In this document: one piece after another, positions 6,453 through 33,025 of the stretch
Numbering within the stretch: the stretch's first letter is position 1
Layout: each line of letters opens with the position of its first letter
Assembly (NCBI RefSeq): GCF_000427805.1
Contig: NZ_ATYS01000017.1
Location: 1 to 64,000, forward strand
Direction: 5' to 3'
DNA: 64,000 bases
Origin: Budvicia aquatica DSM 5075 = ATCC 35567
Lineage (GTDB): Bacteria; Pseudomonadota; Gammaproteobacteria; Enterobacterales; Enterobacteriaceae
Notes under the pieces: model-generated
Told to the model about the DNA's origin: nothing
The model's database searches: none
Seen by the model: the letters and a program-made list of their open reading frames with translations, nothing else
Program-made: the position numbers and the translations under genes

Positions 6453-9400
6453 ATGTTAAACGCCATGTCAGATAACCAAGACAATAATCGCGAACAGGAA
6501 TTACTGGATAACGCCGTTGCAGAAGGCGGTGCCTACGATATTTTACGTAAACGCTTATCTGAACAGGGCCAACAACTCCACGAAAAAGCGAAACAGCTAA
6601 ACGGTCGCCGTCTGGAAGAGTTCGGCAAAAGCCAGATGGACATCATTGGCCGTATCCGTATTCGTACTGAAAATAACTGCGTTGCGCGAGATATTGTCCG
6701 CGTCGGTGAGTGGCTGCTGTTTGGCTATAACGTTTTTATTGGCTTGAAAAAAGAGACGCGCATAGAAGATGTCTTCTCTCTTTATCGCCTGACTGAAAAT
6801 GAGGGCGAATACGACGTTGAACCCGTTGCTTTAACCGGCACCTTCCTGAACATCAACAGCTTTGTTCAGGACTTTAACGAGCTCTACACTTACTATAAGA
6901 ATACCCAGTTACTTCAACTTGTTGAACGTGAAGGAAAACTGCTGGCCAGTTTCCAAATCGGCGAGAGAATTACCGACGTCAGGGTTTTCCGCTGGTCAAT
7001 ATCAAGCGATAAAACTGAAATTAAATATATCGACAACCGCGGTGAACGGGATATCGCCCTGCCTCCGGCCTATGACTTTGAGTGGCATAAAACCACCCGT
7101 GAGAATGCGGTCAATGGCCGCTACTCTCATATGAATATTCTGGATACGGTATTCGTCGAAACGATTGGCGGTGACCTGACGATTAAGTGTGAAAACAACA
7201 CCGAAGACGGCTTGGGAATCTATCGGGAAGCGGTATTAGATAAAACCCAATCTCTGGATGATGCGCAGATTGAATATGCTCAGGCCGGCCCCCTGATTTT
7301 GCTAAAAATATTGCCTTATCGGGAAGAGTCCTGGCGCTATCTGGTTTATAACACCTTATCTCAAACAGCTATGCGTATTGATGCCATAGGGCTGGCCTGT
7401 ATTCAGCTACCGGAAGACCACGGCATTATCTTCCCGGGCGGTTACTATTTACAAAACGGCGAGTATAAGACCTTTGACCAGCCGATGGATGGCATGCGTT
7501 TTCGCCGAATTCGTCGTTCACCAAACGGTGAAGACGTATTATATATTTTCTATGAGCCTAACTTTGGCCGTTTAGCCCTGTTTAACTACAACATGATTGA
7601 ACGTAAGCTACACAATCCGTTGTTTGGCCATGGCTATGCCATGCTGGAAGATGGCCGAATGGTGCTGTTTGAAGGCCAATCGAATGAACCTACCCGTATT
7701 CATCCAATGCAGGTTTGGCAAACGCCCTACTACTCAGATGAATATGCCGCCCTTCAGCCGGCAAAAAATAGCTTTTTTGGCCGAATTGGTAATGCCGAAC
7801 TGGTTCGGGGAATTTCTGACCTCTACCACATCGCCAGAGAGATAGAGCAACAGCAAATATCATCTCAGCTTTATGAAAAACTCAGTCAGGATGCACGCCG
7901 ACTGATCGATATCTACTATTGGCTCAATGATGAGCAGAGCCTGCACGCATCCATCTTACTAAAAGAAATATCGCAAACCGGCGAACTGGTACTGGATGAA
8001 TACGAAAAAGTTGAGAGTATCCGCCGCCAGTCCGAACGGGCAATGAGTGAAGCAACATCTCGCCAAAAACAGCTAATTTTATCCTTATTACCGGACAGCT
8101 GGAGTAACGCTCAGCAGTTTGTTGACGCACTCAATGAGCTTAATGTCCACCGCGGGCAGCTCATCACCCTGCGGGATTATCGCTATATTGACTTAGACCG
8201 ACTCGATGAGATGGAACAACAGCTCACCGAGAGTCAACAAAGAATCTCACTCGCCACGGCTGACTTTTTGGCCAGCGATAAAGCCCTGCTGCCTTTTACT
8301 CAGCAGCTTCAGTCACTGGAAAAGCAGACTCAGGAAGCGACGAATAACGTCCAGCTTAACGAGCCCTTAGCCGGCATGGAAAAAATGTCTGCGGATTTAG
8401 ACATGCTTTCCAATCTGATGGCCTCATTGAAGTTCGAAGATACCATTCAACAAACTCATATTATTGAATCAATATCTGAGATCTATGCCAGATTAAATCA
8501 GGCCCGAGCCCGTTTACAACAGCGCCGCAAAGAGCAAGGTTCAGTAGAGTCTATTGCTCAATTCGGTGCTCAATTTAAGCTATTTAGTCAGGGGATTACT
8601 AACGCCTTAACGCTGGCCAGCGATCCTGAGCGTTGCGATGAGCAGCTTTCCCGTTTACTGGTTCAGTTAGAAGAGTTGGAAAGCCAGTTCAGCGAGCAGG
8701 AAGAGTTTTTAAACGATATTCTAAGTAAACGAGAAGAGTTACTTGAAACGTTTGAAAGCCATAAGCAATCCCTGCTGGATGAGCGCCAACGTAAATCACA
8801 AAATCTGACCGTTGCCGCTGACCGACTGCTCGACAGCCTTCAACGCAGAACCGCTCGATTTAACACCCTTGATGAGCTCAATGCCTTTTTCGCCTCTGAC
8901 CCGCTATCGATTAAAACTCGTGAAATTATTGAACGACTGCGCGGGCTAAAAGACAGCGTCAAAGCCGATGATATTGATGCCAAATTTAAAGCCGCCCGGG
9001 ATCAGGCTATCCGCAGCTTAAGGGATAAATCCGAAATATATGAAGACGGTGGCAACGTCATTAAGCTCGGCCCTCGCCATAGGTTTAGCGTTAATACACA
9101 GGAACTGGATCTCACTATTTTACCTCGCGGGGAACAGCTTTATTTGCATTTAACCGGTACCGATTATCAGGAACCCATTGAAAGTGATGAGCTGGAAACG
9201 CTAAAAGAGTATTGGCAGATCTCGATTGAATCTGAATCACCTGAAGTCTACCGGGGTGAATATCTCGCCTACTCTCTGATTTATGCCGCCAGTAAAGAGC
9301 AAGATGGTCTCACTCTGGACAAACTGATCTCCCTACTCCATGAGCCGGAAGCGCTGGAAAAAACCGTTCGTGATTTTGCCTCACCTCGTTATAAAGAGGG

Positions 9401-12255: not shown

Positions 12256-12954
12256 ATGGATAACGTGGATATGGATAATGCTGCACTGGAAGATTATCTA
12301 AAAACAACGCTTGCTGATTTATCATTAAGTCAGTCTGAACGTAATCAACTTCGTGAGCTAGGGCAAACATTAAATCTGGAACAGTCCAGCTTTATGCGTA
12401 ATCGCGCATTTGATTTAGTGAGAGCTCAATTAACATCAGCCCCTGAGGACCTCCAGCCAACATTAAAATGGCTGGAGCTTGTGATCAAAACTCTCGATAT
12501 CAGCAGCATCCAACCCAAAATTAATTCCGCCGCCTATTTCTCCCCGGGTGAAGCCTGCCGGGAGAAAATTCGTTCAATGCTGGCTCAGAGCCGTCAGAAA
12601 GCAGACATCTGTGTTTTCACCATCGCAGATGATGTGCTTACAGAAGCGATTCTAAATGCCCACCAACGAAACGTTCAAATAAGAATAATTACTGATAACG
12701 ATAAATCAGAAGACAGCGGTAGCGATATTGAATATCTGCAAAATAAAGGTATCGCCATCGCGATGGATAATAGCCCATATCATATGCACCATAAGTTCGC
12801 GCTTTTCGATAATAGTTTTCTGCTCAACGGCAGTTTTAACTGGACGCGGAGCGCTTCTCAGCAAAATCAAGAGAACGTGTTAGTAACTGACGATATAACA
12901 TTACTCACCGCCTACCAAAAAGAATTTAATAAACTATGGACGCAGTTTAACTAA
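12256..12954 (+). CDS. Phospholipase D-family (single HKD, Nuc-like) nuclease/phosphodiesterase, cytoplasmic
   Basis: Canonical HxKx4Dx6GSxN motif (HHKFALFDNSFLLNGSFNWTRSA). No signal peptide. The gene is low-GC relative to its neighbours and has an AT-rich upstream region. Confidence 0.7.
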   Translation: MDNVDMDNAALEDYLKTTLADLSLSQSERNQLRELGQTLNLEQSSFMRNRAFDLVRAQLTSAPEDLQPTLKWLELVIKTLDISSIQPKINSAAYFSPGEACREKIRSMLAQSRQKADICVFTIADDVLTEAILNAHQRNVQIRIITDNDKSEDSGSDIEYLQNKGIAIAMDNSPYHMHHKFALFDNSFLLNGSFNWTRSASQQNQENVLVTDDITLLTAYQKEFNKLWTQFN

Positions 12955-19478: not shown

Positions 19479-19507
19479 TTGACAGTCTATGAGTAGCTAG
19501 ATATGAT
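19479..19507 (+). promoter_or_regulatory. Sigma70 promoter of tRNA-Asn copy 1 (TTGACA, 17 nt spacer, TATGAT, GC-rich discriminator)
   Basis: The -35 TTGACA is at 19479-19484 and the -10 TATGAT at 19502-19507. A GC-rich stretch (gattcgcccc) follows before the tRNA. Confidence 0.6.
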
Positions 19508-19525
19508 TCGCCCCGTTCAAACGAT

Positions 19526-19601
19526 TCCTCTGTAGTTCAGTCGGTAGAACGGCGGACTGTTAATCCGTATGTCACTGGTTCGAGTCCAGTCAGAGGAGCC
19601 A
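19526..19601 (+). tRNA. asn tRNA: tRNA-Asn (anticodon GTT)
   Basis: 76 nt, identical in sequence to enterobacterial tRNA-Asn (TCCTCTGTAGTTCAGTCGGTAGAACGGCGGACTGTTAATCCG...GGAGCCA). Encoded CCA. Confidence 0.95.
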
Positions 19602-19653
19602 TATATAGTTTTATGACGTTTAGATGAGTCTAAGCAAGTCATAAAATAGAGTT

Positions 19654-22762: not shown

Positions 22763-22791
22763 TTGACAGTACCACTGTTGGCGGATATGAT
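22763..22791 (+). promoter_or_regulatory. Sigma70 promoter of tRNA-Asn copy 2 (TTGACA, 17 nt spacer, TATGAT)
   Basis: Same architecture as the copy-1 promoter, and the leader sequence is duplicated. Confidence 0.6.
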
Positions 22792-22809
22792 TCGTTCCGT
22801 TCAAACGAT

Positions 22810-22885
22810 TCCTCTGTAGTTCAGTCGGTAGAACGGCGGACTGTTAATCCGTATGTCACTGGTTCAAGTCCAGTCAGAGGAGCCA
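22810..22885 (+). tRNA. asn tRNA: tRNA-Asn (anticodon GTT), second copy with one T-loop substitution
   Basis: Identical to copy 1 except a G-to-A change in the T-loop (TTCAAGT versus TTCGAGT). Confidence 0.93.
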
Positions 22886-22941
22886 TATTAGATTTCAAGA
22901 AGTTCAGATGAGTCTGAACAGCTCTTGAGATTAGACAGTTT

Positions 22942-22977
22942 AAAACCCCGGAATGGTGACATTCCGGGGTTTTTTAA
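22942..22977 (+). terminator. Rho-independent terminator after tRNA-Asn copy 2
   Basis: AACCCCGGAATG..CATTCCGGGGTTTTTT. Confidence 0.7.
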
Positions 22978-23065
22978 TATCTGGTCATTAGTATTGTGCT
23001 TCATCGGTAACCTTTCCCTCACTCCATTAGCCAGGCGGGCAATCACAGGTAATTCTCATTGAAAG

Positions 23066-23127
23066 AAAAAGCCCCGATAAACTGTCGGAGCCTTTAGGTT
23101 ACTGCATTCTTAGAAATTAACATTAAC
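23066..23127 (+). repeat. ~60-bp intergenic repeat, copy A (AAAAAGCCCCGAnnAAnTGTCnGnGCnTTTAGGTTACTGCATnCTTAGAAnTTAACATTAA)
   Basis: About 85% identical to copy B at 30596-30657 in the same orientation. Begins with a hairpin-like GCCCCG...GGGC segment. Confidence 0.7.
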
Positions 23128-23310
23128 CAATATTAATTTATTCAATCAACCCGGCTAACGTAAGTTTTAACCTTAATTTACTCAGAGTTTTTATTTTTAA
23201 TACCCAGTCTCGTTACCCTGCCATGTTAATTAAAAATAAAATCAGCCAGCCAAAATTGATTTAATCGATAATGCTATTTTCATTAAATGTGAAAAGGAAA
23301 AAGGGAATAA

Positions 23311-24033
23311 TTAATGGCCTCCCTCTTCTTTTGGTACGACTTCTTCTTTTGGTACAAATAGCACCTTAGCTAATAACATACATGTTACAACACAAATAAT
23401 GATCGAGGCATATCCTCCACCAAAGGGTAACACGGTAAAAATACCTAATATACTTAATAACTTAACAATAAAAATAACCGGTAAAGCACTTAGCGATAAT
23501 CTTAATGGACTATTTAATAACCTATCCATAAAGAGCGCGCCAAAAAGTGCTGGTAATAAAAACTGTAATGCATCCAGTATTGCTTGAGGAAGGTGCTCAA
23601 TGATCACTTGCCCGGCAACGGCAAGAAATGTCATTAAAGTCAGACTGATAAATATAGAAACTGAAATCCCAATAGCGGTAATAATAGTGCCTTCCGGCGT
23701 TCCTAATTGATACCCTGCAGCGTTCAGAGCCTGAGTTGCAGCAGGAACCCGGACCTCTTTGGTATTCCCGGCCATATAGGATAAATAGAGCCCGGGAACC
23801 CCAAAGATAGATTGCAGTGACATTGGGTCGACAATATACCATGGCAATAAAATAGATAGCATCGAGACCATACCCGTAAAAATACTATCTGCCGTTGGCT
23901 GGGCATCAAAATAAAATAATAAAACTAACACAGGTAAATAGGCCACCAGTAATACTGAACGAGTGCACCATTTTCCGCGGCTAACAATATAAGGCATGTA
24001 GTCTTTTTCAAAAATATCACTTTTCGTTTTCAT
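23311..24033 (-). CDS. Polytopic inner-membrane protein (240 aa), putative transporter subunit
   Basis: Multiple hydrophobic helices. The stop lies about 16 bp before the next membrane-protein gene. Last gene of the sigma54 operon. Confidence 0.5.
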   Translation of the reverse strand: MKTKSDIFEKDYMPYIVSRGKWCTRSVLLVAYLPVLVLLFYFDAQPTADSIFTGMVSMLSILLPWYIVDPMSLQSIFGVPGLYLSYMAGNTKEVRVPAATQALNAAGYQLGTPEGTIITAIGISVSIFISLTLMTFLAVAGQVIIEHLPQAILDALQFLLPALFGALFMDRLLNSPLRLSLSALPVIFIVKLLSILGIFTVLPFGGGYASIIICVVTCMLLAKVLFVPKEEVVPKEEGGH

Positions 24034-24048
24034 TATTATGGTCCATTT

Positions 24049-24795
24049 TTATTTAGCGATCACAGCCACAGTCATTCCGATGACCATACAAATGGTTAAT
24101 CCCCATTCTTTTAACCATTGAATATTTGCTTTTCGATTATAAAGAGTAATACCAGCCATTGCGGACGCAGAGGAAATAATGGCTAGGGTATTGGCTCCTA
24201 AGGGATAACCAAAGTTCATGGTTAATGCACCAAAGCTACCAATCAATGCACCACTGCCAATGATTGGAATCAGGTGAACATTGCCTCCGGATATAACCTT
24301 ATTCACTTTATCCATTCGATGAGCGAAGAATGAAACAAATAATAAGAATGGTAGCCCACATGTCGTCATTACAATGGCCGCCGCACAGAGATAGCTGGCA
24401 TTAAGTTCACTTTTACCTAACGTTAATCCCATTCCATCAGCGGTAAAAGCGGCTTCCATAAGGGCATCGGCAACAGAGCCAATGAAATCAACCCTCATCC
24501 AGGCCATCGGGGCACCGACATACAACATCAGTGTCAGAATGCCTGACAACATCATAAAACAAGGGCCAATTGATGCAATTGATGCCCCCCGAATGGCACT
24601 GCTGACTTTAGCATCAGAAATGCCAATCTCTTTTGCCGTGCGTAAACTTTTTCTGAAAAATAGAAAAGCTTGAGCGAAAACAAAACAGAGTGCGGGAGCT
24701 GCTGCCATCCATAAAATCCAGCTATTGGCAATGTCGCTATACTGTTCTGTCATATCACTCCCCTTCTTCCATCTTGAAGCAGAAGGTGCATACAT
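24049..24795 (-). CDS. Polytopic inner-membrane protein (248 aa), putative transporter subunit
   Basis: Hydrophobic helices throughout. Overlaps the upstream small-protein gene by about 40 bp. Confidence 0.5.
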   Translation of the reverse strand: MYAPSASRWKKGSDMTEQYSDIANSWILWMAAAPALCFVFAQAFLFFRKSLRTAKEIGISDAKVSSAIRGASIASIGPCFMMLSGILTLMLYVGAPMAWMRVDFIGSVADALMEAAFTADGMGLTLGKSELNASYLCAAAIVMTTCGLPFLLFVSFFAHRMDKVNKVISGGNVHLIPIIGSGALIGSFGALTMNFGYPLGANTLAIISSASAMAGITLYNRKANIQWLKEWGLTICMVIGMTVAVIAK

Positions 24796-25255
24796 TATCG
24801 GTAAAGAAATGTTTTTGGTGGATGCATTTCAACTTCGGATTAAAGCCATATGCAATAGACGGATCAATCATTTCACAATAGAGCATGCCATATTTTTCCA
24901 TGCCCAATTTCTGAAATTCACTGGCAAAAACACAGCGCGTAAAAAGCTGTTCTACATATCCATCACCATAACTATCAACGCTCTCAAATTCATCGCTACG
25001 GTCCATGTCATAGCTGACTAAATAATTGTCGCTGTCATTTTTTTGTCCGCGAGCATGGGCTCTTCTGGCAATATCTTTTCCTCGCTCCTCGCCAAATTTC
25101 CAGACACCTCGCTTAATAGCCTCTTCACCTTTTTCACCAAACTCATCAACAACCTCTTTGGCTAATGCAACAAACATTCTGGCAAACATTTGATACATAG
25201 ATACAGGCTCTAAATCATCGGCGATTTTATTACTTTCTACTTTATGATCTTTCAT
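24755..25255 (-). CDS. Small cytoplasmic Cys-rich protein (166 aa); possibly an L-2-amino-thiazoline-4-carboxylate (ATC) hydrolase-like enzyme
   Basis: Soluble, with a C-terminal cysteine cluster (CEMIDP...CIHQKHFFTDNVCTFC). The ATC-hydrolase assignment rests only on gene context with an M20 carbamoylase and is speculative. Confidence 0.4.
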   Translation of the reverse strand: MKDHKVESNKIADDLEPVSMYQMFARMFVALAKEVVDEFGEKGEEAIKRGVWKFGEERGKDIARRAHARGQKNDSDNYLVSYDMDRSDEFESVDSYGDGYVEQLFTRCVFASEFQKLGMEKYGMLYCEMIDPSIAYGFNPKLKCIHQKHFFTDNVCTFCFKMEEGE

Positions 25256-25314
25256 GAGTTATTCCTTATTTAATGATTAACGTGTTTATAACGGTATATT
25301 TACGATACAAATAA

Positions 25315-26547
25315 TTAGCTCTGGTCTAATGCAATCATGGTGTGAAATAACACCTCGGTTCCCTTTGCCATATTTTCCCAAGTAACATTTTCATCAGGAT
25401 GATGAGTGATGCCCTTATAGCAGGGCACAAACAGCATGGCTGACGGGCAAACTCCCGCCATAATCATGGCGTCATGGCCCGCGCCACTATTCATGTGTCG
25501 ATATGATAAATTGAGTTTTTCGCATGAATGAATAATCAGCTGTCTTAATGCTTCATTCATCACTACCGGAGATTTATAAGAAATATTGTTAATATCAAAT
25601 GCAGTATTACATTCTTGTTGAATTAATAACGCTTGCTGATGAATATACCTGTCAATATCTTCAAGAATTTTTGCATCGCCAGAGCGGATATCTAAGGTAA
25701 ATTGGCATTGATTTGGAATACAGTTAGCGGAATTAGGCTGCAGTGAAAATTTTCCTACCGTTAACGTTGCACTATCAGCGTATTGACGAAGAATAAAACG
25801 ATTAAGCTCAGTGACGAATAAACAGCCGGCCACCCCCGCATCTTGCCGCAAGGTCATGGGTACCGTTCCGGCATGGCCAGCAAATCCGGTAATTGTAATT
25901 ACCATTTGCTGTATAGCGACGATACTATCGACAATACCAATATCAATATTGGTTGCTTCTAATACCGGCCCTTGTTCATCGTGCAGCTCTAAAAAAGCTT
26001 TGATCGACTCCGGAGCGCGGAAAGCGGGTTGAACAACCCGATGACCTAAATAGTCTGTGAGCACTTCGCGTAGGCTATTTCCCCGATCGTTATACAGCCG
26101 ATCTTTATCCTGCTCGGAAAACTCTCCGGAAATAAACCGGCTGCCTAACAACACCGTCCCAAAATGAGTGCCTTCTTCTTCAACCGTTGCCAATACTTCA
26201 ACGCTATGGCTTAACTGAATATTGTTTTCTTTTAGTATTCTAACGGCTTCTAGCGCACACACTACGCCGGCAATACCATCAAATGCGCCTGAGTTTCTGA
26301 CTGTATCGAGATGAGAGCCACTGACAATGCTCGGTAATGCCGGATCTTTTCCTAGCAAGATCCCATACACATTGCCCACATCATCTTCTTTAATAATCAG
26401 CCCGATTTCCTGCATCTGTTGCTTAAGATATTCCACACCCTGTCGGTATGTAGCAGTAAGCCCAATTCGGGTCACGCCACCATTACAGGGCTCTGAAATA
26501 TGACGCAGTGTCTCAATATCTTTTTTTAAACGTGATTGATTCGCCAT
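25315..26547 (-). CDS. M20-family amidohydrolase of the N-carbamoyl-L-amino-acid hydrolase / allantoate amidohydrolase (hydantoinase-carbamoylase) group
   Basis: Metal-binding motif signature (GSHLDTV...DGIAGV, EEEG, GHAG...). At 410 aa the length is typical of AmaB/AllC-type dimeric M20 enzymes. Confidence 0.75.
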   Translation of the reverse strand: MANQSRLKKDIETLRHISEPCNGGVTRIGLTATYRQGVEYLKQQMQEIGLIIKEDDVGNVYGILLGKDPALPSIVSGSHLDTVRNSGAFDGIAGVVCALEAVRILKENNIQLSHSVEVLATVEEEGTHFGTVLLGSRFISGEFSEQDKDRLYNDRGNSLREVLTDYLGHRVVQPAFRAPESIKAFLELHDEQGPVLEATNIDIGIVDSIVAIQQMVITITGFAGHAGTVPMTLRQDAGVAGCLFVTELNRFILRQYADSATLTVGKFSLQPNSANCIPNQCQFTLDIRSGDAKILEDIDRYIHQQALLIQQECNTAFDINNISYKSPVVMNEALRQLIIHSCEKLNLSYRHMNSGAGHDAMIMAGVCPSAMLFVPCYKGITHHPDENVTWENMAKGTEVLFHTMIALDQS

Positions 26548-26555
26548 AACGCCGC

Positions 26556-27824
26556 CTACTCCCCTAACATAATGTTTAATATTTCTTGATCCGTTTGCCT
26601 CATTCCCTGGCTGGCTAGCCTTCCGACGGCCTTTATCGTGTGGTCTACCGAAGATTTAACGATGCCGTCACCGGGTTGTAATACGTCATTTTTCATTGCA
26701 ATCTCATGACACATAACGGCAGTTTCAACACAGGTAGCAATTTTGGCTGCACACGAAGCCTTTGCACCGTCACAAATCATGCCGGATAGCGTCCCGAGTG
26801 TATTAATGACTGAGTATTCAATTTGCTCATCAGTGCCCTTTCTCAATAAAGTAATCCCTGCGGCACTACCGCTGGCAGCACAAACGACGCCGCAATAAGC
26901 AGACAATTTTCCGATATAGGATTTTTCATACAGAGCAATAAGGTTGCTAAGGAGCAATGCCCGATAGCGCTCTTCTTGAGATGAATTAAGCTCTTGAGCA
27001 TAAATGATAACGGGCAATGAAACGGTGAGCCCCTGATTACCACTCCCGGAATTAATCATAACCGGTAAATCACATCCGCCCATTCTGGCGTCAGATCCGG
27101 ATGCAGCATATGCTTTAGCGCGATTCTTAGGACTATTATCAGATGTTAATAAAATGGTTTTACCCACATTGACACCATAGGGATTATTAAGGCCTTCTTG
27201 CGCTATTTGTAAGTTATATTGAATCTCTTGATCTAATAGATCGATAAGCGAGGTGTAGTCACTATATCGAGAGAAATGGATAATCTCCTGAAGAGTAATC
27301 CCATTTATCGAATGACTATCCTGTGGGTTGTTATCGATCTCATCTAATTGAGAACAGAGTTGTTCACCATTGCGGATAATGCTAACTACATTCGTGTGCC
27401 CATCTCGAATTTCAACGCTGACCGTATCATTCTTATATTTTCCAGTAATAATGATATGCAATGTGGCATGACTTTCAAGCAGCTCTATTGAGCAAGGAAT
27501 CTGTGGAATTAAGCGCTGACATTGTTCAATTTGTTCTGGCGTTATATCAGACAAAACCTCTAGTTTTTTATCTGAACAGCCAAAATAAGCACCCAATAAA
27601 CAGGCTACGGGAATGCCTTTCATTCCACCGGAATTAGGGACAATGACGCTTTTCACATTTTTAACCATATTTGCACTACATTGTGCAAGCAGCGATTCTG
27701 GTTTATGCGCTAAATATTTAGTCACTAACGAAGAGGCATAAGCGATAGAAATAGGTTCTGTACAACCCAATGCCAATACCATTTCATCACGTAATAATTT
27801 AATTAACTTCAATTCAATACTCAT
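26556..27824 (-). CDS. cyuA: UPF0597 / serine-dehydratase-like L-cysteine desulfidase (CyuA/YhaM family)
   Basis: ALGCTEPIS, SGSDARMGG...NSGSGNQG and MICDGAKASCAAK blocks are collinear with E. coli YhaM. Confidence 0.75.
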   Translation of the reverse strand: MSIELKLIKLLRDEMVLALGCTEPISIAYASSLVTKYLAHKPESLLAQCSANMVKNVKSVIVPNSGGMKGIPVACLLGAYFGCSDKKLEVLSDITPEQIEQCQRLIPQIPCSIELLESHATLHIIITGKYKNDTVSVEIRDGHTNVVSIIRNGEQLCSQLDEIDNNPQDSHSINGITLQEIIHFSRYSDYTSLIDLLDQEIQYNLQIAQEGLNNPYGVNVGKTILLTSDNSPKNRAKAYAASGSDARMGGCDLPVMINSGSGNQGLTVSLPVIIYAQELNSSQEERYRALLLSNLIALYEKSYIGKLSAYCGVVCAASGSAAGITLLRKGTDEQIEYSVINTLGTLSGMICDGAKASCAAKIATCVETAVMCHEIAMKNDVLQPGDGIVKSSVDHTIKAVGRLASQGMRQTDQEILNIMLGE

Positions 27825-27859
27825 ATATATCCTTAATTCATGTGTTATAAGATATATAG

Positions 27860-27875
27860 AGCAAGGAGCATGCCA
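27860..27875 (-). promoter_or_regulatory. Sigma54 (-24/-12) promoter, TGGCATGCTCCTTGCT on the minus strand, driving the cyuA-like operon
   Basis: GG and GC elements are spaced exactly as in the TGGCACG-N4-TTGCW consensus. The site lies about 35 nt upstream of the cyuA-like ATG, and an AAGGA RBS follows. Confidence 0.6.
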
Positions 27876-27952
27876 ACCTCATTTAAAATAAAAGCCAATA
27901 TCATTAATTCATTAAAAATCAATAAATAGCTTCGACCCCTAATTAATTATAT

Positions 27953-27968
27953 GTGAGTAGAGTCACAA
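27953..27968. promoter_or_regulatory. Perfect TGTGA-N6-TCACA palindrome (CRP-type site or enhancer-binding protein UAS) ~90 bp upstream of the sigma54 promoter
   Basis: ATGTGAGTAGAGTCACAAA. Confidence 0.45.
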
Positions 27969-28148
27969 AAAATAACAAAATGAGTTGGCGTAGATTTATA
28001 CAAATTTTTATTATTGTTAGGAATATATTTGGCTTTAAGCCTGATTACCAACCTAACATATTGATTTTATTTAATTAACTAAATATGGTAAAAATTCTTA
28101 AAAATAAGAATGAGCATAAGCAACAGCCAGTGAGTAATTTCGCTTGGT

Positions 28149-28934
28149 TTAAACATCCCGTAATTTTTTTCTGAACTCCGCAGGGGACACCCTCATTAAT
28201 TTACGAAAGATAGAAATTAACGCTGATGCGCTGTTATAACCTAGCTCAAATGCAATTGACTCAATGGTATAATCCGTTTCGCCCAACAGAGATAATGCCT
28301 TGATGACTCGTAACCGCTGGCGCCATTCTCCTAATGTAATACCTAGCTCTTGTTTACTTCTGCGCATTAACGTTCTTTCTGTTGTATTAAATTGGCGAGC
28401 TAGCTGCGAAAGAGACAGGCAAGAGTGAGGGTTATCATCCAGAAATTGCAGAATAGGCTTAAGAATGCGATCGTTTGAAGTCGGTAAATAACTGTCCACT
28501 TTAGGCATTTCACACAGTTGATCGACTAAAACTTGGAGTAAACGCTTCTCTTTATCCGTTTCAGGAAAAATAATTTCATTGTTCTGTAAAGTCCATAAGA
28601 TACTTCTAATTAATGGATTTAGGAGCAATATCGTTGGTTGCTTAGGCAGAGACTCACAATATTCAGATAAGATATACAAAGAACAATGTACGACTTCACA
28701 ATTATTAAATGCAATATGTTCAACCCTTGGTGGTAGCCATAAACCATACTGAGGTGGGACAAGAAAATGTTTATCATCTATATGAATTTTCATTACCCCT
28801 CGATAGCAAAAGTTAAACTCTCCGCAACCATGTTGGTGCTTAGGATAAATACCATTCTTAGGCATAAAAACTATGCGAGGAAATATCGGTGATGGCAGCT
28901 CATCGCCATATGCCGGTAAAATTATTTGGCTCAT
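28149..28934 (-). CDS. AraC/XylS-family transcriptional regulator with N-terminal cupin sensor domain
   Basis: C-terminal dual HTH (LSQLARQFNTTERTLMRRSKQELG..., ESIAFELGYNSASALISIFRK). N-terminal beta-barrel region. Confidence 0.8.
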   Translation of the reverse strand: MSQIILPAYGDELPSPIFPRIVFMPKNGIYPKHQHGCGEFNFCYRGVMKIHIDDKHFLVPPQYGLWLPPRVEHIAFNNCEVVHCSLYILSEYCESLPKQPTILLLNPLIRSILWTLQNNEIIFPETDKEKRLLQVLVDQLCEMPKVDSYLPTSNDRILKPILQFLDDNPHSCLSLSQLARQFNTTERTLMRRSKQELGITLGEWRQRLRVIKALSLLGETDYTIESIAFELGYNSASALISIFRKLMRVSPAEFRKKLRDV

Positions 28935-29129
28935 ATCATTTACCCCACAAACAAATTGCTTACCTATTATTCACAATGGCTGTTTAGCGATACATTATGG
29001 CTGAATCTCTCTATATGTATAAGCCAATAAAATGGCACAATCATTTTATATCTAGTTTAAATCAATTTTTGTAACAAAAAAGACCCATTAATAGAACTTA
29101 TCATAATTTGATTATAAATGGTGTAGATT

Positions 29130-30563
29130 ATGACTATGTCCCTTAAGAACATTGAAAATTTTATTCAATCTTATATTAATACGATTGCGATAGTATTAAA
29201 GCTTGATATAACCGTCGTGGATAATAATTTAGTCAGGATAGCAGGGACAAACCGTTATTCTACTGAGATCGGAAATACGATTCATAAAACGAAATTCTAT
29301 CAAGACGTGTTTAGCTCAGGATTACCTAATATCATGTGTAAGAAAACGAGATTTTCCGCTTGTTATTCCTGTGCTAGGTATCGAAGTTGCTCTGAGTTGG
29401 CTGATATAGCCTATCCAATAAAATACAACAATGACATTATTGGCGTTATCAGCCTGATTGCATTTACCGAAGAATCTAAAGAAACGCTGATCAATAATGA
29501 TAAAAGCTATATAGATTTTTTAAAATGCATTAGTACCTTGTTAGCAAGCCAGCTATTAGTTTCAATTGTTAAAATTCCATTAAAGTCTAATCTCAGCCAA
29601 ATACAGAATAAATCTAAAGTTGAATTTATTAGCGCTGATTCCCGAGTTAAAAAACTGCTTGAGACCGCAAAACAAACGGCAAACTCGGATTCAACCACTC
29701 TTATCACGGGAGAGAGCGGAACAGGTAAAGATGTATTAGCCAAAATTATTCATCAATCAAGTAACCGGTCCGCGCATCCGCTCATATCAGTTAACTGTGG
29801 TGCAATACCGGAAAATTTAATTGAAAGTGAGTTGTTTGGCTATGAACGAGGCGCTTTTACCGGCGCCAACAGAGAGGGAAGCATAGGCAAATTCGAGTTA
29901 GCCAATAATGGTATTTTGTTTCTTGATGAAGTGGGAGAGATGCCACTTACCGCTCAAACAAGGCTACTACGCGTGTTGCAAGAAAAGACAATCCAACGTA
30001 TTGGCGGGAAAGATGATATTGCTATTAATGTAAAAATTATCTGTGCAACAAATCAGAATTTACAGCATTTGATTCAAGAGAAAAAATTTCGGGAAGATCT
30101 CTATTACCGGATTCATGTTATTCCGCTTCATATTCCGCCGTTAAGGGAAAGAAAAAACGATATACAGCTGCTTTCAGAGCACTTTCTAAACCACTTTAAC
30201 CATAAATTTAGTAAAGAAATCATCATCAATAATAATGTTCTTGATATATTAAAAACCTACTTATGGCCGGGAAATGTCAGAGAACTAAAAAATTTCTTTG
30301 AATACTTAACCAATATCAAAATGAGCGGAGAGATCGACGAAAGTGATATCCCGCCATCAATGCGTCATATACCAGAGATGAAAACAGAATCTTCCCGGTC
30401 GCTAAAATCAATGCTCAAAATACAAGAAAGCCAGCTGTTACACTCACTAATCTCCACGACGTACAGTGCAAATGGAAAAAAGCAGTTGGCTAATCAACTC
30501 GGTATATCAGTCTCATCCCTGTATCGGAAAATAGCTGAATATAAACTGCAGCAAAGAGGCTAA
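29130..30563 (+). CDS. Sigma54-dependent transcriptional activator (bEBP) with N-terminal Cys-cluster sensor domain and C-terminal HTH
   Basis: AAA+ sigma54-interaction domain (GESGTGKDVLAKIIH, ELFGYERGAFTGAN GAFTGA motif, LLRVLQEK). The N-terminal ~150 aa contain CKKTRFSACYSCARYRSC. C-terminal HTH is KKQLANQLGISVSSLYRKI. Confidence 0.85.
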   Translation: MTMSLKNIENFIQSYINTIAIVLKLDITVVDNNLVRIAGTNRYSTEIGNTIHKTKFYQDVFSSGLPNIMCKKTRFSACYSCARYRSCSELADIAYPIKYNNDIIGVISLIAFTEESKETLINNDKSYIDFLKCISTLLASQLLVSIVKIPLKSNLSQIQNKSKVEFISADSRVKKLLETAKQTANSDSTTLITGESGTGKDVLAKIIHQSSNRSAHPLISVNCGAIPENLIESELFGYERGAFTGANREGSIGKFELANNGILFLDEVGEMPLTAQTRLLRVLQEKTIQRIGGKDDIAINVKIICATNQNLQHLIQEKKFREDLYYRIHVIPLHIPPLRERKNDIQLLSEHFLNHFNHKFSKEIIINNNVLDILKTYLWPGNVRELKNFFEYLTNIKMSGEIDESDIPPSMRHIPEMKTESSRSLKSMLKIQESQLLHSLISTTYSANGKKQLANQLGISVSSLYRKIAEYKLQQRG

Positions 30564-30595
30564 TGGAGGTGCCTTACCCGACAAGCCAGTGAACG

Positions 30596-30657
30596 AAAAA
30601 AGCCCCGACGAATTGTCAGGGCTTTTAGGTTACTGCATACTTAGAATTTAACATTAA
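30596..30657 (+). repeat. ~60-bp intergenic repeat, copy B
   Basis: Direct repeat of copy A (23066-23127), located immediately after the bEBP stop codon. Confidence 0.7.
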
Positions 30658-30844
30658 TTACTTCAATAAGTTATAACTGATACTGCTACTAGATGTACAC
30701 GTTCATAAGAGAAAAATTAAGTATTTGTAGCGAACAATTCCTCCGATTTATTAACTTAAAACACATAATTCCCTAAACATTCATATTAGCTCATCGATTG
30801 TCTGACTCACTAACTTAGTACACCACCCTCGCGATATGTATTTA

Positions 30845-31080
30845 CTACATGGCCTTACATTCGTCGCGATATTCTAAATCAATGTAAAAATACCCATTAA
30901 TCGCGAACATTGACTACAACTACAGGGCCTTTATCGCGCTAATTTTCTGTTCCTGCCGCGATGATACTCTTAACTTCGAGGCCTGACTCCCATCACGATA
31001 TAACTGATTTAATATATCCCCCATCGTGACGATGTCCAATTAACATTGGTTAACTACGAGGCCTTTATCGCGTATATTTA
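30845..31080 (+). repeat. Array of four imperfect ~28-bp direct repeats (consensus ~TAACTACRRGGCCTTTATCGCG.TAT) in the ptsG-like leader region
   Basis: Copies start near 30845, 30918, 30974 and 31054. The two best copies are CTACAGGGCCTTTATCGCGCTAATTTT and CTACGAGGCCTTTATCGCGTATATTTA. Confidence 0.55.
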
Positions 31081-31419
31081 CTAAAACACAGACAACCTAT
31101 AAATCGCCTGAAAGCCCGATTCCGTCTGCGTTAACAACCAATTTAACCATTTAAATTTAGTTGTCAATACTGTTTTTAAATACAGTGCATTTATAATTTT
31201 ATAACCCCTAATTTATTAGTGACTAAGCGAGTTGAAAGTTGCTGATATCACACAATAAAAACCACAAAATATGATCGGGTACCGATATGCTGGGCCCCCA
31301 TACTAAGTAAAAAGAGACCGTTATTGATAAATTTCGCCTCGCTCTTTCTGGTGAATCTCATGTAGTCGTCTACACTCAAAAAACGATTTTATTTACTCAC
31401 CATTCAAATGTATTTAATG

Positions 31420-31441
31420 ATTTGTGATCATAATCACCTAA
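31420..31441. promoter_or_regulatory. CRP-binding site candidate (TGTGATCATAATCACC) ~125 bp upstream of ptsG-like start
   Basis: TGTGA-N6-TCACc with AT-rich flanks. Confidence 0.5.
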
Positions 31442-31561: not shown

Positions 31562-33025
31562 ATGTTCAAAGATCTCTTTGCTAACCTGCAAAAAGTCGGT
31601 AAGGCGCTGATGCTGCCCGTTTCCGTCTTACCTATTGCAGGTATATTACTCGGTGTTGGTGCAGCGCACTTTAGCTGGTTACCCACAATTGTCTCTGACG
31701 TGATGGAGAAGTCAGGAAGTTCGATATTCGATCAAATGCCGTTACTGTTTGCCGTTGGTGTTGCTTTAGGCTTTACCAATAACGATGGCGTTGCAGGTCT
31801 GGCCGCCATCGTCGGCTATGGAATTATGGCGGCAACATTAGGCGTTATGGCCGGCGTTTTGGGCGTTGCTAAGATCGACACCGGTGTTCTGGGCGGTATT
31901 TTAGTCGGTGGCCTGGCGGGTTATCTGTTTAACCGCTTCTATCGTATTAAACTCCCCGATTATTTAGGCTTCTTTGCCGGAAAGCGTTTTGTCCCTATTA
32001 TCACGGGATTTATCTGTATCGCTTTAGGTGTTGCCCTTTCCTTTATTTGGCCGCCAATCGGCAAAGCTATTGGTGCATTTTCACAGTGGGCGGCTTACCA
32101 GAACCCGGCTATGGCCTTCGGTATCTATGGCGTAGTGGAACGTTCATTAATTCCTTTCGGTTTGCACCATATCTGGAACGTTCCGTTCTTCTATGAAGCC
32201 GGCCAAGCCTGCGTTATTGACAATAAAGTTGTTGCTACCATTATCAGCGAAAATATCTGTAAAGCAGAGAATGGTCGCTGGATTACCGGTGAGATCCAAC
32301 GTTATCTTCAGGGCGATCCTACCGCCGGAAATATGGCTGGCGGTTACTTATTTAAGATGTGGGGACTACCAGCAGCCGCTATTGCTATGTGGCACACAGC
32401 TAAGCCAGAAAACCGGGCAAAAGTTGGCGGTATTATGATTTCGGCGGCTCTGACATCATTCTTAACCGGTATCACCGAACCTATTGAATTCGCCTTTATG
32501 TTCGTAGCGCCAGTGCTGTACGTTATCCATGCGCTTTTGGCCGGCTCAGCCTATGTAATTGCCATCCTGCTGGGGATGAAGCACGGAATGACCTTCTCAC
32601 ACGGTGCCATTGACTTCTCGCTGTTTTATCACTTATCGACAAACGGCTGGCTATTCTTTATTGTCGGCCCGATTTACGCCCTGCTCTACTACACAATATT
32701 CCGGGTGGCTATTATCAAACTGAACCTGAAAACCCCGGGACGTGAAGATGATACTCCGAAAGACGCCGTTAAAGCGGCAACCGGCACCAATATGGCTGCT
32801 GACCTGGTTGCTGCATTTGGTGGAAAAGAAAATATCACTAACTTAGATGCCTGTATTACTCGATTAAGAGTCGGTGTTGCCGATGTTTCTCAGGTAGATC
32901 AAGAGAAGCTAAAGCGTCTTGGCGCGGCAGGCGTTGTTGTGGCAGGCTCTGGCATTCAGGCTATTTTCGGGACCAAGTCAGATAACCTCAAGAGCGATAT
33001 GGATGAGTATATTCGTAATAACTAG
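31562..33025 (+). CDS. ptsG: PTS glucose-family EIICB permease (PtsG-like) with ~40 aa loop insertion
   Basis: N-terminus nearly identical to E. coli PtsG ([30 protein letters not shown]). Conserved [11 protein letters not shown] Cys motif [10 protein letters not shown] and C-terminal SDNLK..MDEYIRN. Confidence 0.8.

Follow-up and report, generated by a model that had tools for sequence, protein, structure and literature searches.

The 64-kb stretch of Budvicia aquatica DSM 5075 analysed here (positions 1 to 64,000 of contig NZ_ATYS01000017.1, in the following called the window) carries a pair of short direct repeats that enclose a 7.5-kb gene module between a tRNA-Asn gene and ptsG. A repeat search of the window placed the pair at 23066-23126 (copy A) and 30597-30657 (copy B), with a length of 61 nt and 87% identity, and gapped local alignment lengthened it to 70 nt (23057-23126 versus 30587-30657). 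Over 62 nt the copies agree in 53 positions, which matches the approximately 85% identity reported in a first-pass annotation of the same DNA; the coordinates given there were likewise confirmed, and the distance of copy A from tRNA-Asn copy 2, given there as about 180 bp, was measured as 181 nt. Uninterrupted identity between the copies does not exceed 15 bp. Terminators resemble one another in general form, as the weak Rfam matches to MicC and sR035 described below illustrate, and the repeats might be thought of as a chance or convergent likeness of two unrelated terminators. This is hardly conceivable here, since the alignment score of 84 lies 27 standard deviations above that of shuffled sequences (19.7 +/- 2.4), the two copies show 91% identity over the 35 nt that precede the hairpin, and a 33-nt conserved core occurs at exactly two sites in the 64 kb with three or fewer mismatches, where none was expected.

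The bracketed interval contains exactly seven open reading frames (ORFs), in agreement with the gene content first proposed for it, namely the five genes of a sigma-54-dependent operon (23311..27824, minus strand), the gene of an AraC-type regulator (28149-28934, minus strand) and that of a sigma-54 enhancer-binding protein, the activator (29130-30563, plus strand). From the first to the fifth gene the operon encodes, all on the minus strand, an SDH_alpha/CyuA-like enzyme (26556-27824), an M20 carbamoylase-type amidase (25315-26547), an L-2-aminothiazoline-4-carboxylate (ATC) hydrolase (24755-25255), a DUF5058 protein (24049-24795) and a 240-amino-acid unknown protein (23311-24033). A sigma-54 promoter, TGGCATGCTCCTTGCT (27875-27860, minus strand), is located about 35 nt upstream of the first gene. 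Going by protein family names, the module is predicted to convert 2-aminothiazoline-4-carboxylate via N-carbamoyl-cysteine and cysteine to pyruvate, and the earlier label of a sigma-54 cysteine-catabolic module is a fair description. Copy A follows the last operon gene's stop codon at 185 nt and is separated by about 90 nt from the terminator of tRNA-Asn copy 2, which forms the outer flank of the site (22810..22975, plus strand; tRNA 22810-22885, hairpin 22942-22975). At the other end, copy B follows the stop codon of the convergent activator gene by about 33 nt and sits in a 1-kb gap between this gene and ptsG (31562..33025, plus strand) in which no ORF of at least 60 amino acids was found.

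On the minus strand both copies carry UUAAUGUUAAnUUCUAAGnAUGCAGUAACCUAAA, followed by a GC-rich hairpin of 7-8 bp and a U-run (UUUUUCUUUC and UUUUUUCG), and the stretch before the hairpin forms an AU-rich single-stranded tail (UUAAUGUUAA..UGCAGUAACC). In copy A (23057..23126) positions 23071-23077 pair with 23085-23091 and the U-run is found at 23061-23070; in copy B (30587..30657) positions 30602-30609 pair with 30615-30622, the U-run is at 30596-30601 and the conserved unpaired tail at 30623-30657. The GC hairpin had been recognised in the first-pass annotation, and this part of its description stands, but the statement that each copy begins with the hairpin does not, as hairpin and U-run come last on the minus strand. 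Because of this order, and because predicted folds are stronger on the minus strand (copy A -19.4 kcal/mol, z = -3.0; copy B -19.7 kcal/mol, z = -4.0) than on the plus strand (-12.3 and -16.2 kcal/mol), the element appears to work on the minus strand. Stem differences between the copies are C or U opposite G, for which pairing holds only in the minus-strand RNA, and the terminator stem is kept across homologues with UA/UG/CG, AU/GU/GC and CG/UA pair types (21 sequences, also six Budviciaceae). Both copies have the hairpin-then-U-run arrangement of an intrinsic (Rho-independent) terminator, at which termination is predicted, and copy B may act on the plus strand as well.

Copy B is the genuine 3' end of a candidate structured non-coding RNA (ncRNA) of about 540 nt (30595..31133, minus strand), the parent gene of the repeat, with whose conserved body it is contiguous. 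The RNA would be transcribed divergently from ptsG, its conserved neighbour in Budviciaceae, by a strong sigma-70 promoter (31140..31185, minus strand) that consists of a -35 box TTGACA (31167-31162), a 16-nt spacer and a -10 box TAAATT (31145-31140), matches the consensus in 10 of 12 positions and has a palindrome CTGT-N8-ACAG (31185-31170, minus strand) upstream. With ptsG as an anchor for finding the equivalent 1-kb gap in relatives, we found the unit to be kept over its whole length, promoter and terminator included, in Budvicia, Limnobaculum, Pragia, Leminorella and one metagenome-assembled genome (MAG). In B. diplopodorum, the nearest named relative (PtsG 94% identical), identity to window positions 30596-31215, the 620 nt from promoter to terminator, is 81.5%, and Limnobaculum, Pragia, Leminorella and the MAG match the 1-kb gap at 70-77%, approximately the level of adjacent coding DNA. 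The promoter (AAAAACAGTATTGACA, 16 nt, TAAATT) is invariant in the alignment, the RNA has the conserved start AACGCAG, and its body contains an internally repeated CGCGAU..AAGGCC..GUAG module. Tail and terminator are contiguous with this body in six Budviciaceae and in 21 family members.

The RNAalifold consensus of the six Budviciaceae contains 103 pairs with 93% of cells paired, and 22 of the pairs show compensatory changes, compared with 10.7 in column shuffles and 2-7 when partners were slid by one to three columns; none of 500 shuffles reached the observed covariation, and in one hairpin five of eight pairs changed between genera. We regard this covariation as good but not decisive evidence for a structured RNA. 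No conserved ORF of at least 12 codons was found in a shared position and frame among the six species, and insertions and deletions in the GGAGG region are not multiples of three. A coding RNA, type I toxin or leader peptide was rejected for want of a conserved ORF. Rfam returned nothing at gathering score in the window or in eight related loci; the matches to MicC (24.5 bits vs 90) and sR035 (29.3 vs 233) concern terminator hairpins only and were discarded. In its length of 450-550 nt, its own strong promoter, intrinsic terminator, repeated modules and lack of an ORF the candidate resembles CsrB/RsmB and other large regulatory RNAs, but a CsrB/RsmB-like sponge was rejected, as GGA occurs only about 6-7 times in 540 nt, approximately the level given by base composition and by chance, the CGCGAU..AAGGCC..GUAG module is not a CsrA site, and an Rfam match is missing. 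An SgrS-like regulator of ptsG was dropped too: GUGUACUGAGU is similar to the SgrS seed, but inspection of the ptsG leader by eye showed no convincing complement, and the RNA family is without a ptsG neighbour in most hosts, which also counts against such a role. Two further features were seen around this gene. A CRP-like palindrome, TGTGATCATAATCACC on the ptsG strand, was noticed by eye about 130 nt upstream of ptsG (window ~31417-31437), and the Budvicia ncRNAs contain an extra internal copy of the CGCGAU..AAGGCC..GUAG module of about 90-130 nt (window 30811-31082; repeat 30918-30948 vs 31052-31082), which other Budviciaceae lack; Yersinia and Rahnella members carry several modules.

Copy A, by comparison, is an orphan that duplicates the tail and the terminator of the ncRNA. 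An nhmmer search matched its region only to the last 64-89 nt of the family profile (at 23067-23154), and upstream of it there is no resemblance to the RNA body. Of the 14 family tails with which copy A was compared, copy B scored best (80; the next, Duffyella, 51), and the duplication therefore arose within, or came from, the B. aquatica lineage. A profile census found orphan tails only in B. aquatica contigs. Copy A could in principle give the conserved tail to a second functional RNA, either a 3'-untranslated-region-derived or an independent small RNA (sRNA), and thereby couple cysteine catabolism to the partner of the ncRNA tail. In line with this, conservation within the family is highest in the unpaired tail, and copy A, unchanged in all sampled strains, retains UUAAUGUUAA, GCAGUAAC, a stable terminator hairpin and the U-run. 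We nevertheless consider a second functional RNA unlikely, as no promoter-like site was detected between the operon stop and copy A, GCTC stands in place of the GCCC shared by 21 of 21 family members, and copy A has about three times the changes of copy B relative to B. diplopodorum (in the 35-nt tail, five positions compared with two). These changes look like relaxed constraint, and more changes with the hairpin kept is a pattern that fits retention for termination only.

The relatives have a single copy of the element. In Pragia the empty site, which the first-pass annotation had proposed to look for, consists of tRNA-Asn with its own terminator, about 35 nt and a single ncRNA terminator, with ptsG beyond, and self-searches of five relatives gave one copy each. 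The same gap is filled differently elsewhere: by one ORF of 321 amino acids in Limnobaculum, by about 6.8 kb in Leminorella and by unrelated genes in B. diplopodorum and the MAG. Measured between the tRNA-Asn and the ncRNA terminator it spans 8978-9049 in locus L010 (72 nt; L-numbers are labels of compared loci), 7620-9081 in L003 (1.45 kb) and 2318-9085 in L008 (6.8 kb), and the corresponding stretch in front of copy A in the window is 22886-23056. Because the cargo differs by genus, from 72 nt through 1.45 kb and 6.8 kb to the 7.5 kb found here, the space that separates the two convergent terminators, those of tRNA-Asn and of the ncRNA, is a local hot spot for insertions. An island integrated into tRNA-Asn itself was ruled out, since the far border lacks a partial tRNA-Asn repeat. 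Judged by sequence comparison, the duplication is unique to B. aquatica among the sampled genomes. At places with an identical PtsG the module was present in 10 of 10 cases and no empty-site variant was seen, each copy was 97-100% identical to its counterpart in the window on every contig long enough to include it, and the sampled B. aquatica-type contigs gave no sign of homogenisation between copies A and B.

Some observations concern the surroundings and the assemblies. The two tRNA-Asn genes (copy 1 at 19526-19601) lie in a 148-nt direct repeat of 88% identity (19500-19647 and 22784-22931) that flanks the gene of an 849-amino-acid GGDEF-EAL (GepA-like) phosphodiesterase, an arrangement kept in Pragia and Limnobaculum, and short-read assemblies break at this repeat. 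In L001 (GCA_900706715.1), which encodes an identical activator protein, ptsG, galE, the M20 amidase gene and other genes are fragmented and the DNA is otherwise identical to the window; the fragments are probably assembly indel errors and not pseudogenes.

The operon itself was also found outside this site. In Pragia it lies between secF and bioD and in Intestinirhabdus between ygbA and mutS; in one genome it is part of a tRNA-Leu(CAA) island, next to a P4-type integrase and IS66/IS630-type genes, and two further metagenomic contexts contain it as well (among these loci L085 6962-13442, L082 5114-11455 and L088 6962-11419). Because the same operon occurs in unrelated sites and in an integrase-bearing tRNA-Leu island, it can be regarded, from these sequence contexts, as foreign and horizontally mobile. 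None of the five other contexts shows a trace of the repeat element, and similarity of the foreign copies to the window always ends inside coding regions. Import of the element together with the module was ruled out on the same contexts, given that the copies in Pragia, Intestinirhabdus, the tRNA-Leu island and the two metagenomic loci are without it. Outside B. aquatica the activator gene, where present, lies upstream of the operon in the same orientation, and no AraC gene is found there.

The first-pass annotation had also considered that the repeats are the boundaries of a cassette mobilised by recombination. As a description of boundaries this is accurate, as the repeats bracket exactly DNA that is present only in B. 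aquatica and of which the relatives have the single-copy site. An active cassette, with the repeats serving as attachment (att)-like or RecA recombination sites that now mobilise or excise the 7.5 kb, would further agree with a module that is demonstrably mobile on evolutionary time scales and with prophage contigs in which ncRNA family members lie beside integrase genes. Efficient RecA-dependent exchange in E. coli is usually cited to require roughly 23-27 bp, and the 87% identity with a longest run of 15 bp is below this usual length. Moreover, no recombinase lies in or adjoining the segment, as the earlier annotation had already remarked, the module never carries the element elsewhere, and the ten sampled places keep the module without an empty site or homogenised copies. 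We consider mobilisation at present quite improbable, and since there is no integrase, the longest identity is only 15 bp, no empty-site variant was seen and the operon is free of the element elsewhere, the repeats are therefore to be seen as an old insertion scar and not as an active cassette.

Taken together, the explanation that we consider probable is that the repeats are the 3' end of an ncRNA gene and an orphan copy of it, the old scar of an insertion around a module found only in B. aquatica, and that they now serve as terminators. The ancestral layout would have been as in Pragia, with the ncRNA terminator facing the tRNA-Asn terminator at a distance of a few dozen bases. In the B. aquatica lineage the 7.5-kb module would then have been inserted exactly at the ncRNA 3' end, with duplication of a target of about 70 bp, so that the RNA gene kept an intact end (copy B) and a second copy (copy A) remained next to tRNA-Asn; the recombinase would either have disappeared or have acted in trans. 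Today copy A would most likely end the sigma-54 operon and shield tRNA-Asn from antisense read-through, and copy B would end the ncRNA and probably also the convergent activator gene. The sequences themselves show that the repeat is the 3' end of the RNA gene with one orphan copy, that the pair bounds DNA specific to this lineage at a site with one copy in relatives, that a recombinase is lacking and that the repeats have diverged and are stable; the rest of this history is inferred. Whether the duplication arose in the insertion event itself, as at att sites, is on our analysis nearly an even call that leans slightly to the negative; alternatively, a later local duplication might have given the operon a terminator.

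Several points weigh against the insertion-scar explanation or limit how far it can be taken. The seven ORFs include no recombinase, and tblastn searches with lambda-type and P4-type integrases found nothing in the window; with no integrase and only 87% identity an att-like origin is therefore not distinguishable from a later local duplication. The two-copy count applies to the 64-kb window and not to the whole B. aquatica genome, in which further copies are possible. The detailed fold of the ncRNA rests on six Budviciaceae species, and the structure was scored on the alignment from which it was derived. A simple terminator scan flagged neither copy, probably because stem extension takes in A/U pairs and leaves too few T, and both the expression of the ncRNA and termination at the two hairpins are predictions.

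Comparison with known systems places the repeat itself in a known kind, an island-border duplication combined with a bidirectional terminator. Genomic islands and prophages can integrate into the 3' ends of tRNA, transfer-messenger RNA, sRNA or protein genes and then carry a substitute 3' end, as in P4-type elements at tRNA genes and in e14 and phage 21, which enter icd. As at such borders, direct repeats here flank a lineage-specific block at the 3' end of an RNA gene, the copy that completes the target gene is intact, the far border retains a displaced partial copy and only one copy exists in relatives, and in another genome the same operon is part of a true tRNA-Leu island that has a P4-type integrase. 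Unlike at such borders, there is no integrase gene or remnant beside the repeats, identity is 87% and not near 100%, the target is an unannotated ncRNA, and neither excision nor presence/absence polymorphism was detected. The A-tract, GC hairpin and T-tract in each copy and the position of the copies between convergent units (tRNA-Asn and operon; activator and ncRNA) are typical of bidirectional terminators, but an ordinary terminator would not have a 35-nt tail that is conserved across bacterial families and is the best-conserved part of a long RNA. Like repetitive extragenic palindromes (REP), bacterial interspersed mosaic elements and miniature inverted-repeat transposable elements, the repeat bears a hairpin, is short and follows genes; in contrast to them, in the sequence examined it has two copies in 64 kb and one per related locus and is tied to a defined gene and not dispersed. 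A ubiquitous REP-like element, which the first-pass annotation had named as the finding that would speak against its proposal, is not what was observed in the sequence examined, as each related locus has a single copy and each plasmid record a single place. The suggestion of a terminator or sRNA family made there is essentially borne out, in that the repeat is the conserved 3' tail and intrinsic terminator of an RNA gene family that extends across Enterobacterales.

Homologues of the ncRNA (loci L002, L003, L004, L008, L010, L099-L108, L110-L112 and L116-L123) were identified in all sampled Budviciaceae, in replicons of Yersinia, Rahnella, Pantoea, Duffyella, Citrobacter, Enterobacter and Providencia, and at prophage borders. 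Specifically, a blastn search of plasmid records recovered full-length homologues that share the promoter, tail and terminator. Rahnella, Pantoea and Duffyella carry homologues on megaplasmids and Enterobacter ludwigii on a conjugative plasmid, and the Citrobacter freundii record looks chromosomal (rpoC to thiH). Providencia has a shorter, 353-nt version, and on a Klebsiella plasmid only the last ~100 nt remain, which reads as a truncation by an end of insertion sequence IS1. The Yersinia frederiksenii plasmid homologue lies beside P4-like primase genes; as a C4 antisense RNA (Rfam RF01695; L099 105-191) and Icd-like, DUF5375 and P4-alpha-like primase genes were seen upstream of it, this copy therefore borders a P4/P1-like satellite region, in a record labelled plasmid. 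A motif scan of IMG/VR gave 16 matches, of which 11 were full-length members. No match to the family was obtained in 5,426 complete E. coli genomes and a phage collection, a metagenome scan for more members returned only another B. aquatica contig and one chance match, and an exact-pattern scan with TTAGGTTACTGCATNCTTAGAA of a collection with one genome per species, to which the window's own species seemingly does not belong, gave no matches.

Promoter and upstream box are shared by 15 taxa and 10 viral contigs (25 sequences), and a near-consensus promoter and an intrinsic terminator occur at fixed ends in about 30 loci. The family alignment (14-21 members) keeps a CGCGA/UCGCG stem (with UGCGA/UCGCA variants), a GGCC stem, a long-range GRUGUAC/GUACAUY helix and the terminator, and its most conserved stretch is the unpaired tail AUUAAUGUUWAAU...UGYAGUAMC..AAAAGCCC. 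These data also bear on whether the 540-bp unit acts as DNA, carrying recombinase arm sites or protein-binding repeats of which the repeat would be a duplicated piece. Its repeated palindromic ATCGCGAT / AAGGCC..GTAG modules and the position of some members about 200 nt from lambda-type integrase genes might be read this way, but the fixed promoter and terminator ends, covarying helices whose many G-U pairs would, on the opposite strand, become A-C mismatches, and the lack of an integrase among annotated neighbours of the chromosomal Budviciaceae, the inspected Rahnella/Pantoea megaplasmid and the Citrobacter chromosomal copies make a DNA element very improbable. The upstream box is a LexA-like CTGT-N8-ACAG in Budvicia, Pragia, Rahnella and strain Kacie_13, ATGT-N8-ACAG in Limnobaculum, the MAG, Yersinia, Citrobacter, Enterobacter and Pantoea, has ATGC in Duffyella and is absent in Leminorella. 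Control by LexA is attractive in Budvicia; the left half-site reads ATGT in roughly half of the family.

The neighbourhoods of the homologues give an indication of potential functions. In at least 10 loci from different families the ncRNA terminator is followed after about 300 nt, and on the same strand, by a cspG-type gene (L101 5386-5598, L102 3869-4081, L105 4082-4294, L107 3110-3322, L110 7679-7888, L112 and L120-L123), with its own Rfam cspA thermoregulator starting about 95-150 nt past the ncRNA terminator. In Providencia (L103) the RNA was observed near an lpxL/lpxP-family acyltransferase gene and a cold-shock gene. The cold-shock neighbours suggest a link of the RNA family to cold adaptation. 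On two viral contigs the RNA gene is found about 200 nt downstream of a lambda-type integrase gene (L117 4375-6274, L118 8526-10423), and on a third (L111 9301-12387) the order is int, GNAT, ncRNA and a 38-residue integrase C-terminal fragment (12274-12387, 79% identical) repeated just after the ncRNA, so that the RNA gene may lie at or beside a phage attachment site. Literature searches on Budvicia small RNAs, and on cspG with sRNA, intergenic regions and cold, found no description of the RNA. The parent RNA, absent from Rfam, looks like a new family of structured enterobacterial RNA tied to mobile DNA and cspG. A wider proposal, which we put forward as tentative and rather doubtful, is that of a new Enterobacterales RNA family of about 450-550 nt on chromosomes, megaplasmids, conjugative plasmids and prophage or satellite borders, with an invariant unpaired 3' tail and often directly upstream of cspG, which might have a regulatory or protein-sequestering role, possibly cold- or SOS-linked, and whose 3' end might be a preferred landing site, with the duplication in B. 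aquatica as a fossil of such an event.

By itself, the repeat is an unremarkable relic of past genome change, namely the scar of an insertion that also serves as two terminators. For B. aquatica it does mark the point at which a complete sigma-54-controlled thiazoline/carbamoyl cysteine-precursor pathway entered a hot spot adjacent to tRNA-Asn and became fixed in one species. It matters more as a pointer to an RNA gene that lacks annotation and whose promoter, fold, tail and terminator are conserved, in one of the 0.5-1 kb gaps that annotation pipelines at present leave blank. If expressed, the RNA could be tested as a candidate new regulatory RNA with ties to cold-shock genes and mobile DNA.

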